DNA of 5,264 nucleotides from a virus (taxonomy: Duplodnaviria; Heunggongvirae; Uroviricota; Caudoviricetes). The stretch is from IMG/VR virus record IMGVR_UViG_2711768008_000020; one strand, given 5' to 3'. Below the pieces are notes generated by a model, which did not search any database, was not told the origin of the DNA, and saw nothing but the letters and a program-made list of their open reading frames with translations. The translations under genes were made by a program, and so were the position numbers. Shown here piece by piece: positions 91-5,264 of this stretch (its first letter is position 1; each line of letters starts with the position of its first letter).

Positions 91-409
91 AGCCTTCTTG
101 AGGCTACCACCTGTTTTCAGGTGTCATTCAGACGTGATTTGCCCCAGATTGGGAAAGCACGCTTTTTTCTCAGCTATCGTCCTCTTATTTTGCCGTTACA
201 TTTCTTTTTGCATTCTAATGATTAATTTACAATAATAATATCGGTAATTATTGAGTAATAATAAATTAATTATTGCAAATGTAATTTAATTCCATCTTCG
301 CGTTATATTCCAATCTTTAATCTCCGCATGGAACAAGTTGCATGCGTGACTATATTAAGACGACTTATAACCACCAAAACATTTGCTTTGCAAGCAAAAA
401 CAGTGACCA

Positions 410-438
410 TTGACTCTAAGAAAATTCCGATCTATTGT
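410..438 (+). promoter_or_regulatory. Candidate sigma70-like promoter (TTGACT, 17-bp spacer, TATTGT)
   Basis: TTGACT at 410-415 and TATTGT at 433-438 with a 17-bp spacer. AT-rich DNA produces such hexamers by chance, so this is weak. Confidence 0.2.
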
Positions 439-722
439 TAGGGTCATCAAAGTTACTTAACAGTATTCCGAAATGAAAATACAAAGCAAGCTAATTGTCT
501 TATTAAACATTATTATTGCATTTATATTATTTGAGCTTTTAGCTCAAAAATTTGGTTTGAGTACATTATTTTAAAGCAAGATAAACAATATCGGGCACTC
601 TAGTTTTTATAATTAACAATTAAACGTCCATAAAATGTTATTTACTTTTCTTCGCTATTGTCATATCTTAATATAGTGGCTTACGCCACTCTACTTTCAT
701 CACATTTTGTACGTTTATGTAC

Positions 723-756
723 TCGCCATGAAGCTCTTTCATGGCGATTTTTTATT
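723..756 (+). terminator. Rho-independent terminator on the plus strand, convergent on the 3' end of tfa
   Basis: Perfect 10-bp stem (723-732 tcgccatgaa pairing with 738-747 ttcatggcga), 5-nt loop gctct, followed by TTTTTTATT (748-756). No comparable U-tract follows the hairpin on the minus strand. Confidence 0.55.
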
Positions 757-839
757 CTTAATCCAAGAACATACTCCCTACCTATAGCAAAATCACTTTT
801 TTAACAAAAGAATAACGTATTTAGGTAATCATTACGAAT

Positions 840-1421
840 TTACCCTATAGGTGCTACTGGCCATTCAATATCCGGTGCAGTTGATGTATCAACACGGTTC
901 AGCAACACCCGATACTTTTTCCAAGCTTCCAGCAACAAGGTTTCTTTCTCCGTTGCGATCTCCAGATCCACAGCATCCTGAAGCGGCGCTATATGCTCAC
1001 TGGCTACCTGCATCAGGCTGTTTTTTGTTTCTTCCGCCTCCCGGATCCGGAACAGTTTTTCTGCTTCCGTATCCTTCACCCAGGCTGTGCCGTTCCACTT
1101 CTGAAACTCCCCTTCCGGGGATAACCAGGTGACATTTTCCGGTAATGAGCCGAGTTCAGAAATAAATAACGCGTCGCCGGAAGCCACGTCATAAACCGTT
1201 TTACCCCGATGATCTTCAACGAGATGCCACGATGACTCATCACTGTTGAAAACAGCCACGAAACCAGCCGGAATATCTGGCGGTGCAATATCGGTACTGT
1301 TTGCAGGCAGACCTGTATGAGGCGGAATATATGCGTCACCTTCACCAATAAATTCATTAGTTCCGGCCAGCAGGTTATAAATTTTTATGGTCCGTGGTTG
1401 TTCACTCATTCTGAATGCCAT
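840..1421 (-). CDS. tfa: Tail fibre assembly protein (lambda Tfa / TfaE / TfaR family chaperone)
   Basis: 193-aa ORF starting [62 protein letters not shown], matching lambda-type Tfa as I recall it. ATG at 1419-1421 overlaps the stf stop by one base (TAATG). GAGG lies 8 nt upstream of the ATG. Stop TAA at 840-842. Confidence 0.92.
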
Positions 1422-4400
1422 TATGCAAGCCTCACAATATAGTTAAATGCGATGTTTTTGACGGTGTTTTCCGCGTTACCAGCAGCGTTAACGGTGATGG
1501 TGTGTCCATGTGAACCAATCGCAACAGAGTGCGTATGAGCACCAATACCGACAGTATGCGCGTGTGCACCCGCAGATGCTGCTGTGCCGGACAGTGAGTG
1601 TGTATGGTTTCCTTCTGNNNNNNNNNNNNNNNNNNNNNNNNNNNNNNNNNNNNNNNNNNNNNNNNNNNNNNNNNNNNNNNNNNNNNNNNNNNNNNNNNNN
1701 NNNNNNNNNNNNNNNNNNNNNNNNNNNNNNNNNNNNNNNNNNNNNNNNNNNNNNNNNNNNNNNNNNNNNNNNNNNNNNNNNNNNNNNNNNNNNNNNNNNN
1801 GCCACTGGTTAATGAGCCACTGATACCAACCTGATTAGTCCCGCTAACTTGAGTACTCCCTGCCGGAAACATTCCAGTAGGTTGACTCCCGCTATTCGTT
1901 CTGGGCCCAGTCTGACTATGTTGGTGGGCCCCAGCTGAACTTGTAGAGCCGCTCAGACTGTGCGTATGCGCCCCGGTGTTATTCGTGGATTTAGTGCCGT
2001 AATCAAACGACGATGTGGTTTTCGTCCCCAAATCCGTACTGGATGCGCTGGCGCTGTGGGTGTGCGATTTAATGCCATCCTGTTCCTGAGACAATACGGC
2101 ACGACCACTGGCGGGCTTGCCCTTAATCGTCCAGCCACGCATATCAGGGATCACGCCTGACGGATAAGCGGCTGCAAGTTTCGGGTAAGCAGATTTGTCA
2201 AAAGTCTGCCCCTGCATCAGGGCATAACCAGACGGAACGGTATCTGATGGCCACGGGATTGGTGCACCGACTGGATAAAACTCTGCAGGAGGATGAGCCG
2301 AGGTGTAAAGCTGCGCCCACGGCGACCAGTTTGCGTCGGTCGTATCCCGTCGTGAACGAATAAATGCCGGAGCATGAGCACCGCTTGTACCACTCCAGCC
2401 GATGAGTAACTCACCTTCGCCAACGGCTGTCATCCCTTTCAGGTGAATGATATTTCCATACGCTGTTGGATATCCGTTGTTATACACCTCGTATAACTCA
2501 AGACCTGCTGCCCCCTGCGTATTGTCTGTCAGCGCGGCTACCCGACCTTTTGAAGCCAGATTAACTGATGATACTGCTGTTCCACCTGACGGTAGCGCCC
2601 CGATCTCTGATGCCGTTGGCTTATTTCTGGAGTTATAGTCCCTTCGCCAGCCAGGTGAATAATCTGTTCCGTGATTAATATAGGTAAACTGGGCGTTGGT
2701 TGTTCCGCCACCGCTGGATGTGGTCGGAGTGGTAATGCGGATCGTCATCGCTGACTTTATCCCCATTACTTCAATGACAGCTCCGGCGAGATGAATATTA
2801 CCGCAGCCAGTATCAGTAATGATTTTATTATTGCCATAAGACCAGGAACCCTTGCACATCCAGTATGGATGGTTAAATGCTCCCTGAGAATCCAGCCACT
2901 CGATAAACTGTGCAGTCGTCCAGTTTCCTGTTGTTGTGCTTACTGACCCACCGAAGGCACGGCAGGCACCAATATTTTTCGTAAAGGTGTCTTTGCCAGG
3001 GATATCCGCACCGTTCTGATCTTTCTGCAGACGTTTCTCAGCATTGTCATTGGCTGCTTTTACTGCCTTTGGCGTTGCCGCCAGCGTTTCAGACGTGCTG
3101 TTGGTCGCGCTGCTTAGCTGGATTATCCCTTTCTGTGCTGTCGTTGCATCCTGTGCGGTGTATTTCCCGTTAGCCAGGTCATACGCGGCCTTAACGGCTT
3201 TTGGCGTTGCCGCCTGTGACTCGGAAGTGCTGTTAGTCGCACTGCTGAGCTGTACTATCCCCTTTTTCGTCGTGCTCGCATCCTCAAGCGCCACGGCGGA
3301 TGCAANTTTTGCCGCTGTCTCAGCGCGCGTTGCTGCAGATTCCGCCGTACTTTTGCTCTGAGCTGCCGCCGTCGCACTGCCAGCTGCCTCTGTCGCCTTC
3401 GTGGATGCCGTCGTGGCGCTGCCCTTCGCTGCTGACGCCTGTCTGGTCGCCTCATCTTTTGAAGCAGACGCCGATGATGCCGATGACGCCGCCGAACTGG
3501 CGGACGATGCGGCAGCCGTTTTTGAGGATTCTGCACGGGTTTCCGACGCTTTCGCGTTCGTTTCGGATGTCTTCGCTGCGGAAGCTGACCTCGCTGCTGC
3601 CGTGGCCTGCTCAGTGGCTTCGCCAGCCTTCGTTGTGGCTGTTGAAGCGGATGATGCGGCGCTTTCTGCCGATTTTCCGGCGGCGGTGGCACTGGCTGAG
3701 GCCTGCCCGGCACTTGTTGACGCGGCGCTGGCAGACGACGCAGCCGCTGTTTTTGAGCCTGCCGCAGCTGAGGCACTCTGTCCCGCTGCCGTTTCAGAAG
3801 ACCTGGCGTTCGTCTCGGACGTTTTGGCCGCCTTCGCAGAATTTGCAGCCGCCGTCGCCGAGGAAGCTGCGCTACTGGCGCTTGATGATGCGTTCGTTTC
3901 TGATGATTTTGCCGCCTCTTTTGAAGCCGACGCATCCCGGGCTGAGGTGGCAGCTTCTGACGCTTTCGTGGTCGCGGTGGATGCAGAAGTGGCTGCTGAT
4001 TGTTGTGACGCTGCCGCATTCGTTTCTAACGTTTTCGCCGCACCGGCACTGGTAGCCGCCGCGCTTTTTGAGGACTCTGCAGCGGCAGCACTTTTTGAGG
4101 CTTCAGTGGCCTTTGTTGATGCCGTTCCTGCGCTGGAAGACGCTGACTGAGCCGACGAAGCGGCCTGTCCGGCTGACGTGCTGGCTGCACGTGCTGAATC
4201 TGCAGCATCAGTCGCATGGGTTGCCGCCTCACGGGCTGATGTGCTGGCATCGCTGGCTGATTTCTTCGCGGCTGCCGTGTTCTGTGCCACCGCGGACGCG
4301 TTACGCGCCACCTCTTCCACCATCAGCTCAAAACGGCGCAGAGCCTCCGGACGGGCATCATCCTCCGTCATGGCACCGAGAAAATCATTCAGCGTACCGG

Positions 4401-4647
4401 GTCGGGAATCTTCATACACGGTGATGGTCCCGGCATGTGACGGCGGGAATCCCTCCACCAACAGAATAACGCTGTACTGCCCGTACTCAACGTCCATGCT
4501 GTAACGCCCGGCTTCATCCGGATTTTCTGAGGCCAGCGTGTTCACCACCACCGTGGTGCTGTTACGTTTTGCTTTCAGCTGGATTGTGCAGTTCTGTACC
4601 GGTTTTCCTGTGCCGTCTTTCAGTACACCTGAAATCTTTACTGCCAT
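1421..4647 (-). CDS. stf: Side tail fibre protein (lambda Stf / StfR-like), mosaic, interrupted by an assembly gap
   Basis: N-terminus [26 protein letters not shown] from ATG at 4645-4647 (the track's extra MN comes from an upstream GTG). It is followed by a long Ala/Ser/Thr-rich region, a duplicated KGI(V/I)[20 protein letters not shown] motif and a central domain. Downstream of the gap the correct frame reads ...[60 protein letters not shown] and stops at TAA 1421-1423. The track ORF ending at 1432 reads the last ~62 codons in the wrong frame because the 183-N gap is not the true length. Confidence 0.9.
1618..1800. other. Assembly/scaffold gap (183 N) inside the stf coding sequence
   Basis: Uninterrupted run of n from 1618 to 1800. 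Flanking coding frames differ by one base, so the real missing length is not 183. Confidence 0.97.
3052..3272. repeat. Direct tandem duplication (~132-bp period) inside stf encoding two copies of a tail-fibre repeat motif
   Basis: Core ttggcgttgccgcc occurs at 3069-3082 and 3201-3214 with similar flanks. The two copies translate on the minus strand to [27 protein letters not shown] and [27 protein letters not shown]. Confidence 0.7.
3300..4305. repeat. Low-complexity Ala/Ser/Thr-rich coding repeat region of stf (fibre shaft)
   Basis: About 330 codons dominated by A/S/T with recurring motifs ([27 protein letters not shown]). GCN-rich DNA on both strands generates three long shadow ORFs in other frames. 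Confidence 0.65.
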
Positions 4648-4656
4648 ATTCACCCC

Positions 4657-4685
4657 ACAAAAAAGCCCGCCTGAACCGGCGGGCT
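4657..4685 (-). terminator. Rho-independent terminator downstream of lom, immediately upstream of the stf ribosome-binding site
   Basis: Minus-strand AGCCCGCC (4678-4685), loop GGTTCA, GGCGGGCT (4664-4671), then TTTTTTGT, giving a perfect 8-bp GC-rich stem. It lies 26 nt after the lom stop (TGA, 4712-4714) and runs directly into GGGGTGAAT-ATG of stf. Confidence 0.6.
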
Positions 4686-4711
4686 GTCATAACACTGTGT
4701 TACCTGGCTAA

Positions 4712-5264
4712 TCAGAATTTATAACCGACACCCACGATGAAACCGTCAGTGCGCCAGTCACCACTGCCGGAACCTTCATAAGCGACATCAATGGCCACGG
4801 ACTCGGTCGGGTTAAACTGCACGCCAGCCCCCCACGCCAGAGACGTGTTGCTGTGGCGACCGTCATCACTTCCGGTCAGCACATCGTGCGTTTTCCCCTT
4901 ATTGTCAGTTACGCGGATATAATCCCCGGAAAAAGTCGACACACGGCTGTAAGCCACACCCGCCATCGCATACGCGCTGAACCATTCATTCACGCGCACA
5001 GACGGCCCCGCCATCACGCTGAACCAGCGGTTACGCACGGAATCTTCATACCAGCGGGTATCGCTGTAACGGGTCAGCTGGCGATTCTTGTCTCCTGCAT
5101 AGCTGAACGACGTCACCATCCCCAGTGTGTCCGTAAACTCATAACGGTATTTCACGTTAATCCCGTTCAGATCATCACTGCCGGGAACGTTCGTCGAGGC
5201 ATGAAGATACCCCGCGCTCAGCGTGGACTGATGTTCAGACGCCCATGCAGGCGCACCGGATACG
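4712..5264 (-). CDS. lom: Lom/Ail/PagC-family outer-membrane beta-barrel protein, partial (N-terminus beyond window end)
   Basis: Reading frame is open from the window edge to TGA at 4712-4714. C-terminus ...DVAYEGSGSGDWRTDGFIVGVGYKF and internal GINVKYRYE, VMAGP, SAYAMAGVA motifs match lambda Lom as I recall it. The track's start at 5155 is an internal GTG. Confidence 0.85.
   Translation of the reverse strand, partial: VSGAPAWASEHQSTLSAGYLHASTNVPGSDDLNGINVKYRYEFTDTLGMVTSFSYAGDKNRQLTRYSDTRWYEDSVRNRWFSVMAGPSVRVNEWFSAYAMAGVAYSRVSTFSGDYIRVTDNKGKTHDVLTGSDDGRHSNTSLAWGAGVQFNPTESVAIDVAYEGSGSGDWRTDGFIVGVGYKF

Follow-up and report, generated by a model that had tools for sequence, protein, structure and literature searches.

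A conserved small gene, predicted to encode a YncL-family membrane peptide, in the AT-rich gap beside the tail fibre genes of lambdoid prophages

What does the unannotated, AT-rich DNA beside the tail fibre genes of a lambdoid prophage encode, if it encodes anything? This question is raised by a 5,264-nucleotide (nt) stretch of DNA from a virus of the Caudoviricetes (IMG/VR record IMGVR_UViG_2711768008_000020), hereafter the window, in which positions 91 to 839 lie between the end of an insertion sequence, IS1, and tfa, the gene for tail fibre assembly. Comparison of relatives resolves this gap into a mosaic of three pieces, here called modules A (91-175), B (176-261) and C (262-839). Our best explanation, to which we assign a probability of roughly 0.62, is that module C is a self-contained moron, a plus-strand unit for a YncL-family membrane peptide that converges on tfa and is probably expressed from the prophage. 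The 3' end of the unit possibly resembles a small RNA (sRNA).

The features of the unit, including its 33-codon open reading frame (ORF) and its 3' untranslated region (UTR), are listed below by coordinates and strand.

410-438, plus: promoter-like site TTGACT-17-TATTGT, in which a C immediately precedes the -10 hexamer, and a predicted transcription start at about 445
473-574, plus: 33-codon ORF, predicted to encode a YncL-family single-pass membrane peptide, MKIQSKLIVLLNIIIAFILFELLAQKFGLSTLF
575-674, plus: proximal 3' UTR, poorly conserved and tolerant of insertions and deletions (indels), with 8 gap columns when aligned to the most diverged lineage
675-690, plus: stem-loop SL1, from the fold of 670-757
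691-708, plus: single-stranded, C/U-rich linker of 18 nt, CUCUACUUUCAUCACAUU
709-722, plus: stem-loop SL2, from the same fold
723-754, plus: SL3, an intrinsic terminator with a 10-bp stem (723-732/738-747) and a 5-nt loop, followed by an A and U6 (749-754)

A small gene under purifying selection and its relation to YncL

The conservation of the ORF at 473-574 was followed in a local sample of 44 copies with 31 distinct DNA sequences, the most divergent at 78.5% DNA identity. None of these 44 copies has a disrupted ORF, and 47 of 48 further viral contigs, found via the 3' element of the unit, likewise have it intact; the 48th is cut by its contig end. Indels are present in both flanks and none is found inside the ORF, and the distinct substitutions at codon positions 3, 1 and 2 are distributed 13:8:2. 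The most diverged lineage differs at 18 nucleotides, which result in five amino acid changes, all conservative except E21K and S30Y. When 18 changes were placed at random, the ORF stayed open with no more than five amino acid changes in a fraction of 2e-5 of 100,000 trials. A second lineage has six nucleotide changes and one amino acid change (p 0.016). The ORF is under purifying selection.

No other ORF of the module passes comparable checks. ORF 328-441 (+), which is called in the record of phage PhiR70_1, and ORF 658-804 (+) both carry frameshifting indels in relatives, and ORF 668-742 (-) is uninformative because its start falls within the stem of the terminator and the stretch it covers hardly varies. 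Outside the module, ORF 121-225 (+), together with a long form that runs across the IS1 site (gp28 of phage ev099), has an ATA start, is frameshifted in one relative (the O157:H7 prophage, L007) and is not conserved. Other, non-conserved ORFs are called in the gap by two phage records. Pfam gave no match for the four ORFs compared with it (121-225, 328-441, 473-574 and 658-804, all plus strand), nor did PHROGs for 328-441, 473-574 and 658-804; of the four, 473-574 alone gave a match in NCBIfam.

In NCBIfam, the sole family matched by the peptide is YncL (NF000537), with an E-value of 1.3e-5 and 25 bits. Aligned with YncL of Escherichia coli K-12 (b4598, MNVSSRTVVLINFFAAVGLFTLISMRFGWFI), the phage peptide is colinear from Met1 and identical at 11 of 31 residues (35%), and many further positions match conservatively; the MAFFT alignment has two gap columns at the C-terminus and is free of gaps before the last three columns. 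The ungapped BLOSUM62 score of this pair is 60, compared with 20 +/- 4 and a maximum of 44 for 5000 composition-preserving shuffles, so that 0 of 5000 reach the observed value. We also built our own YncL profile from chromosomal sequences. A second scan of the GTDB species representatives turned up chromosomal yncL orthologues only, at 36 loci from Escherichia, Shigella, Citrobacter, Salmonella, Pseudescherichia and Intestinirhabdus, whose 19 distinct proteins make up the profile. Against it, the three phage variants score 23-24.5 bits, and the best of 2000 shuffles scores 9.8.

The layout of the family is also found in the peptide, namely about 30 amino acids with one transmembrane helix, a basic residue before the helix, an Asn within it and [KR]-F-G after it. 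The hydrophobic core lies in the same place in both proteins, at residues 7-24 of the peptide and 8-25 of YncL. Judged by its sequence, the peptide is a genuine but distant paralogue of YncL; chromosomal YncL proteins are 60-100% identical across five genera, whereas the phage form is 35% identical.

The gene has gone unnoticed. The exact peptide occurs just twice, unnamed, among some 15 billion predicted proteins; a scan of the GTDB species representatives for the phage-type peptide found none, a full-text literature search for the peptide sequence returned no paper, and the peptide has no match in PADLOC. The 33-codon phage gene has never been annotated before and is new content of a gap that had appeared empty.

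The predicted transcription unit and what it may do

The ORF is flanked by one promoter-like and one terminator-like site, both on the plus strand and both conserved in three lineages. The promoter-like site at 410-438 is the sole match of its kind that is conserved in all three diverged lineages, and the sole match at all in one relative (L008); its -35 hexamer is invariant in 8 of 8 aligned copies. We infer from this pattern that the site serves as a promoter, which would give a leader of about 28 nt between the predicted start at about 445 and the ATG at 473. A C directly before the -10 hexamer is a feature of sigmaS-type promoters, and the C found here would fit a promoter of that type. 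The spacer also holds a GATC (Dam) site, at 429-432 just upstream of the -10 hexamer, that is invariant in all aligned copies. On the minus strand, the promoter-like matches are not conserved; the one at 664-635 is absent in relatives L008 and L011.

At the other end of the unit, the terminator-like site is kept in both L008 and L011. The gap contains two terminator-like matches, compared with 0.5 +/- 0.7 in shuffled sequences, and folding bears out that hairpins are present. The region 670-757 folds with -27.1 kcal/mol (z -6.5). A terminator at this place would stop plus-strand transcription 85 nt before it enters tfa in antisense.

The strongest conservation is found in the stem-loop block just before the U-tract. 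The identity to the most diverged lineage, region by region, is as follows.

Upstream of the promoter-like site: 75%
Promoter-like site and leader: 80%
ORF: 80%
Proximal 3' UTR: 65%
SL1-SL3 block, 674-747 (74 nt): 94.6%
Terminator tail to the tfa stop codon: 68%

Because identity is far lower on both flanks, constraint on an RNA or DNA element explains this 74-nt island better than a recombination tract. The few substitutions in the stem-loops lie in loops or yield G-U pairs. Among the viral contigs that were found via the stem-loop element, it is never seen without the ORF.

These results bear on the original prediction, which held that the gap has promoter-like hexamers, several hairpins and an intrinsic terminator, that the supplied track shows no ORF in it and that its product is unknown. 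The hairpins and the terminator (723-747 plus the T-run) are borne out, and the arrangement is that of an autonomous transcription unit, in which a promoter-like site and a terminator are both conserved. Promoter-like hexamers are present and those of 410-438 are conserved; their number in the gap is taken up below. As for the ORF, the statement holds for the annotation tracks and fails for the DNA itself, given the conserved ORF at 473-574, and the product can now be named as a YncL-family small membrane peptide.

What the unit might do is suggested by the chromosomal protein. Production of YncL, like that of YohP, partly dissipates the membrane potential, and it condenses the nucleoid and sensitises cells to pore-forming peptides; production of YohP triggers the phage-shock response and lowers protein synthesis (PMC12542507). 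YncL is described as induced by stress and in stationary phase (Hemm et al., as cited in PMC12542507), and it is cleaved by RseP in vivo (PMC10470546). In Salmonella, yncL was first catalogued as a sigmaS-dependent sRNA, STnc1110, and was later shown to be coding (PMC5437024).

Under the moron reading of module C, a sigma70- or sigmaS-type promoter at 410-438 (TTGACT-17-cTATTGT) would start an RNA of about 310 nt that bears the ORF at 473-574 and would end at the strong terminator at 723-754, which may keep antisense transcription out of the tail genes. The ORF would be translated into a single-pass inner-membrane peptide, a divergent paralogue of a chromosomal stress protein. By analogy with YncL, the peptide may insert into the inner membrane and dampen the membrane energisation of the lysogen, from which the prophage could benefit through tolerance of stress or dormancy by its host or through interference with superinfecting phages. 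Conservation is stronger in the 74 nt ahead of the U-tract than in the coding sequence, and this stretch is therefore likely to act in its own right as RNA, perhaps in transcript stability or termination or as a regulatory sRNA derived from the 3' end.

Several points weigh against this reading. With 25 bits, the peptide stays below the curated cut-off of 35 bits of NF000537, an equivalog family, and classing it as a YncL equivalog (orthologue) would therefore be wrong. A search with HMMER against 1.8 billion representatives returned the peptide itself and a frameshift variant only. The selection test rests on few lineages, because just three peptide variants have an independent history. In every lineage the ATG is without an upstream Shine-Dalgarno sequence (AGTATTCCGAAATG); K-12 yncL, by contrast, has AAGGTGG. 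The -10 hexamer is weak (TATTGT, and TATCGT in one lineage), and the five promoter-like hexamer pairs in the gap are no excess over the 3.7 +/- 2.2 of shuffled sequences, so that the number of such hexamers is no more than chance would give. The stem-loops hardly vary, and consequently there are no compensatory base pairs. Finally, the function of the peptide is extrapolated from over-production of a paralogue that is 35% identical to it.

The conservation of the 3' end gives rise to a different reading, in which the main product is RNA. Host or phage mRNAs would be regulated by an Hfq-type sRNA spanning 674-754 (about 80 nt), either a separate transcript or a cleavage product of the 3' UTR, and the ORF would be secondary, as in a dual-function RNA, or incidental. 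In its favour, 674-747 is the best conserved part of the gap, at 94.6% against 65-68% in the flanks and 80% in the ORF, and the layout is typical of such RNAs, with a 5' stem-loop, a C/U-rich single-stranded linker, an A/U-rich stretch, a terminator hairpin and a U-tail. The search against Rfam gave no match within 91-839 at E-values up to 1; when the gap was searched alone, the only match was a weak one to a MicC-like architecture, with 22.8 bits against a gathering threshold of 90 and an E-value of 1.4, which is the level of chance. Also against an independent sRNA are the lack of a convincing conserved promoter directly upstream of the element, the lack of covariation and the constant company of the ORF, whose selection at the protein level would not be expected if it were incidental. 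Pairing of the linker with three candidate targets (the unit's own 5' end, the K-12 yncL mRNA and the 3' end of tfa) was no better than that of shuffled sequences. We consider this reading unlikely.

The two products could also be combined in a dual-function phage RNA that encodes a depolarising YncL-like peptide and releases a trans-acting 3' sRNA, and that would switch the lysogen to a low-energy state, refractory to phages or tolerant of stress. We hold this to be a doubtful extension, a little further from likelihood than an RNA product by itself. If it were true, about 15% of E. coli genomes would carry an unrecognised module for defence or dormancy made of a small protein and an sRNA.

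The properties of YncL suggest as well that the unit could resemble a type I toxin-antitoxin system, in which a depolarising toxin would be restrained by an RNA antitoxin, antisense or in the 3' element, and would stabilise the prophage by addiction or kill infected cells in abortive infection. Such a reading can appeal to a single-helix peptide of 33 amino acids, to a homologue that depolarises the membrane and lowers viability when produced, and to the degradation by RseP that YncL has in common with Hok toxins. The long, structured 3' UTR would be in keeping with it, the missing Shine-Dalgarno sequence suggests restrained translation, and the contact of the Rac prophage sRNA KilS with yncL mRNA, seen by RNA interaction by ligation and sequencing (RIL-seq), offers a precedent for control by RNA. 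It is nevertheless improbable: no antisense promoter or terminator is conserved, the minus-strand match at 664-635 being the one that L008 and L011 lack; the linker does not pair with the 5' end of the unit beyond the level of shuffles; and neither PADLOC nor a toxin family is matched. YncL itself, to our knowledge, is not part of a toxin-antitoxin pair.

Mosaic structure, spread and neighbours

The window as a whole is laid out as follows; module C has been described above.

1-90, minus: end of IS1, whose inverted repeat abuts base 91 and whose transposase reads leftwards out of the window
91-839: the AT-rich gap between the IS1 end and tfa
91-175, plus: module A, 85 nt that make up the right-hand part of a 213-bp segment from the ends of many unrelated prophages, cut by IS1
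176-261, no strand assigned: module B, a spacer with a guanine-cytosine (GC) content of 0.24 and many imperfect palindromes (inverted repeats I1-I3)
840-1421, minus: tfa, from the ORF list and the annotation of relatives, converging on the small gene
1432-4653, minus: stf, with a run of N
from 4712, minus: lom, from the ORF list

The GC content of the gap is 0.315, far below the 0.485 of tfa, the 0.557 of stf and the 0.562 of lom, and therefore the abrupt switch in composition, which the original prediction had pointed out, is real; it coincides with the stop codon of tfa. The opening 85 nt of the gap (91-175) have a GC content of 0.48 and are not AT-rich, so that the AT-rich portion is 176-839, with values of 0.24-0.30. 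In module C the GC content is 0.30, against 0.49-0.56 in the tail genes, and the module lies between tfa and variable cargo, as expected of a moron.

At least part of the 749-base gap is matched in 1343 of 5426 complete E. coli genomes, and its full length in 280; all of these matches are chromosomal. Among the matches listed, full-length and partial, no RefSeq feature lies under the gap. In hundreds of genomes the gap thus matches unannotated intergenic DNA from end to end, which is half of what had been named in advance as counting against a functional segment, the other half being that no transcription is detected there.

Relatives that match over the full length are lambdoid prophages inserted next to ybhB-bioA, where lambda has its attachment site, with the gene order J, lom, stf, tfa, a gap of about 1.5 kb, an AraC-family regulator, remnants of insertion sequences and the prophage end. 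The same arrangement, followed by int and xis, is found in the sequenced phages mEp332, PhiR70_1 and ev099. For this reason the segment, in these relatives, belongs to complete phage genomes and not just to decayed prophages, and viable phages carry the small-gene unit.

Module C is more widely distributed than the full gap. It occurs in 831 of the 5426 genomes (about 15%), at 941 places, and always directly after the 3' end of tfa. Its left-hand neighbours vary and may be the AraC-family regulator, a convergent sitABCD operon or the prophage end at ydfJ' (Qin-like prophages); in Qin-like and some sit-type copies the left flank is a second 3' fragment of tfa. The Qin prophage of K-12 shows no similarity to module C, and ynfT, ydfK and pinQ occupy the position there.

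The slot after the tail fibre genes therefore holds exchanged cargo, as the original prediction had proposed: the module comes first, and what lies beyond it in different prophages is sitABCD, a YdeO/GadX-like regulator of the AraC family or, at ydfJ', the end of the prophage. The idea of a moron is right in part, and the cargo does vary. That of an effector locus finds no backing, since none of the gap ORFs compared with Pfam, NCBIfam and PHROGs matches an effector family, and only the 85-nt module A is common to the O157 prophage end that carries NleG-type genes. As to silencing by H-NS, which had also been suggested, the segment contains one near-match to the high-affinity motif and no enrichment.

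The AraC-family regulator lies beyond the gap in the IS1-free relative L001, at 4501-5244 (-), and outside the window. It is YdeO/GadX-like and scores 148.9 bits against the YdeO model, below the cut-off; kin of this regulator known from prophages are AppY and PatE. A 65-amino-acid ORF (MDGESFNFDDNDIEF.., WP_000348576.1) is found left of the module at 4563-4760 (+) in relative L006 and at 2352-2549 (+) in L036. It accompanies the module in Qin-like prophages and in one mosaic at the lambda attachment site, and it has no match in NCBIfam.

Module A is matched by itself (query 1-85) in hundreds of genomes. It forms three hairpins, of which the last (130-163) is followed by a U-run at 163-168, and its fold energy is unremarkable (z -1.7). 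In the O157:H7 prophage L007, the full 213-bp segment (3872-4086) lies between uspF and three genes of the DUF1076/NleG type, and its two flanks there are diverged copies of one 85-nt sequence, part of a 'capsid protein' stub. Module A is probably debris or the remnant of a terminator. Module B is restricted to the prophage type found at the lambda attachment site and is missing from Qin-like and sit-type copies.

The left edge of the gap abuts IS1. The reverse complement of 1-90 opens with GGTGATGCTGCCAACTTACTGAT, and in L002, a relative with the identical junction, this end is annotated as IS1A transposase. In L001 the gap measures 1505 bp, and base 91 of the window corresponds to gap position 757. 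L002 has IS1 and has lost about 550 bp left of base 91, a loss that was judged in L002 against the IS1-free L001, mEp332, PhiR70_1 and ev099, as the window itself ends inside IS1. In the same relative, IS1 parts the AraC regulator from most of its upstream region. The part lost from L002 includes a tRNA-Ser-like 3' fragment (T-arm and acceptor) on the minus strand of L001, at 5830-5890. This fragment was seen indirectly, through a match to RF04351 of 40.9 bits and one to the T-arm of transfer-messenger RNA (tmRNA), and ARAGORN found no full tRNA. It is probably a relic of the attachment site of another phage. Taken together, the 171 nt at 91-261 are debris of recombination or truncation by IS1, plus spacer.

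It is least probable of all that the whole gap is non-functional AT-rich filler (debris, an H-NS-bound spacer or the upstream region of the AraC gene, with an ORF open by chance), a view that fits 91-261, the empty RefSeq annotation, the evident mosaic structure, in which IS1 stands beside fragments of tRNA-Ser and tfa and a 213-bp module that is truncated, and the AraC gene downstream on the minus strand of intact relatives, but which meets in 262-839 a module with three unrelated left neighbours, one of them convergent (sitABCD), that IS1 cuts off from the AraC gene in this window, with an ORF whose substitution pattern is incompatible with neutrality (p ~2e-5), a similarity to YncL that is not compositional and a 74-nt island of conservation within flanks of 65-68%.

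Some further observations concern the tail genes. The N-run in stf, 183 long (1618-1800), and a single N at 3306 are assembly gaps. A long, repetitive stretch rich in Ala, Ser and Thr is encoded at 3250-4250 (-) of stf, and the weak isrG matches within it are due to chance, arising from repetitive GC-rich coding DNA. Between lom and stf, at about 4657-4690 (-), a GC-rich hairpin with a U-run (GCCCGCCGGTTCAGGCGGGC TTTTTT) resembles an intrinsic terminator; a weak Trp_leader match is merely this hairpin. Rfam IS009 (RF02111) matches 880-1078 (-) with 218 bits, wholly within the coding sequence for the C-terminal part of tfa. The matching stretch is the same tfa fragment that stands on the left side of the module in Qin-like and sit-type prophages, and because this fragment flanks the module there, the stretch may be a recombination joint and not an RNA gene.

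Significance and comparison with known systems

Small membrane proteins are routinely missed by gene finders, and here a 33-codon gene with a clear signature of selection has gone unannotated in culturable lambdoid phages and in 831 of 5426 complete E. coli genomes. Through it, mobile phage cargo is connected with the YncL family, whose member on the chromosome causes membrane depolarisation and nucleoid condensation, and it provides a concrete candidate for a function in lysogenic conversion or superinfection at the slot after the tail fibre genes. It also comes with an RNA element of 74 nt that is more tightly constrained than the coding sequence. Genetics should be straightforward, since mEp332 and PhiR70_1 grow on laboratory strains.

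Among known systems, prophage- or 3'-UTR-derived Hfq sRNAs include DicF, IpeX and AsxR/AgvB, and dual-function RNAs include SgrS/SgrT and AzuCR. The phage unit differs from them in having no Rfam match and no supported independent promoter. It resembles them in its series of stem-loop, linker and terminator, and in the strong nucleotide conservation with which a prophage-borne mRNA for a small protein ends.

Type I toxins and small depolarising peptides (Hok, TisB, Ldr, ZorO and DinQ; YohP) are likewise short and form a single helix, and YncL depolarises as well. A long untranslated region and a prophage location are further points in common, and hokD is found in the same Qin-like prophages. 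The phage peptide has, however, no sequence similarity to these peptides, and no conserved antisense or divergent sRNA gene was found.

The comparison with chromosomal YncL is the closest in sequence. The phage form is without the family's W29-F30 and extends further at the C-terminus; its gene is much more AT-rich (GC 0.22), has no Shine-Dalgarno sequence and carries a long 3' UTR with a conserved stem-loop block; and it follows tfa on lambdoid prophages, whereas chromosomal yncL stands in the patD-yncL-ortT context. Both proteins are nonetheless of similar length (33 amino acids in the phage, 30-31 in YncL) with one hydrophobic helix at the same position, and they share the colinear residues M1, S5, [KR]6, [VI]8-9, L10, [IL]11, N12, A16, L19, F20, L22, [KR]26, F27 and G28. 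The transcript is short and sRNA-sized in both, as predicted in the case of the phage unit.

Phage morons and conversion genes that follow tail genes include lom and bor of lambda, cor of phi80 and N15, and gp15 of HK97; lom, bor and cor are conversion genes that act on the envelope, and lambdoid phages carry them in this slot. The unit in module C is much smaller, with its peptide of 33 amino acids, is opposed to the late operon, and has no sequence relationship to lom, bor, cor or HK97 gp15. It is like these genes in its slot at the end of the late tail operon, in having its own promoter-like site and terminator and a composition unlike that of its neighbours, in a product that is predicted to reside in the envelope, and in being carried by viable phages.

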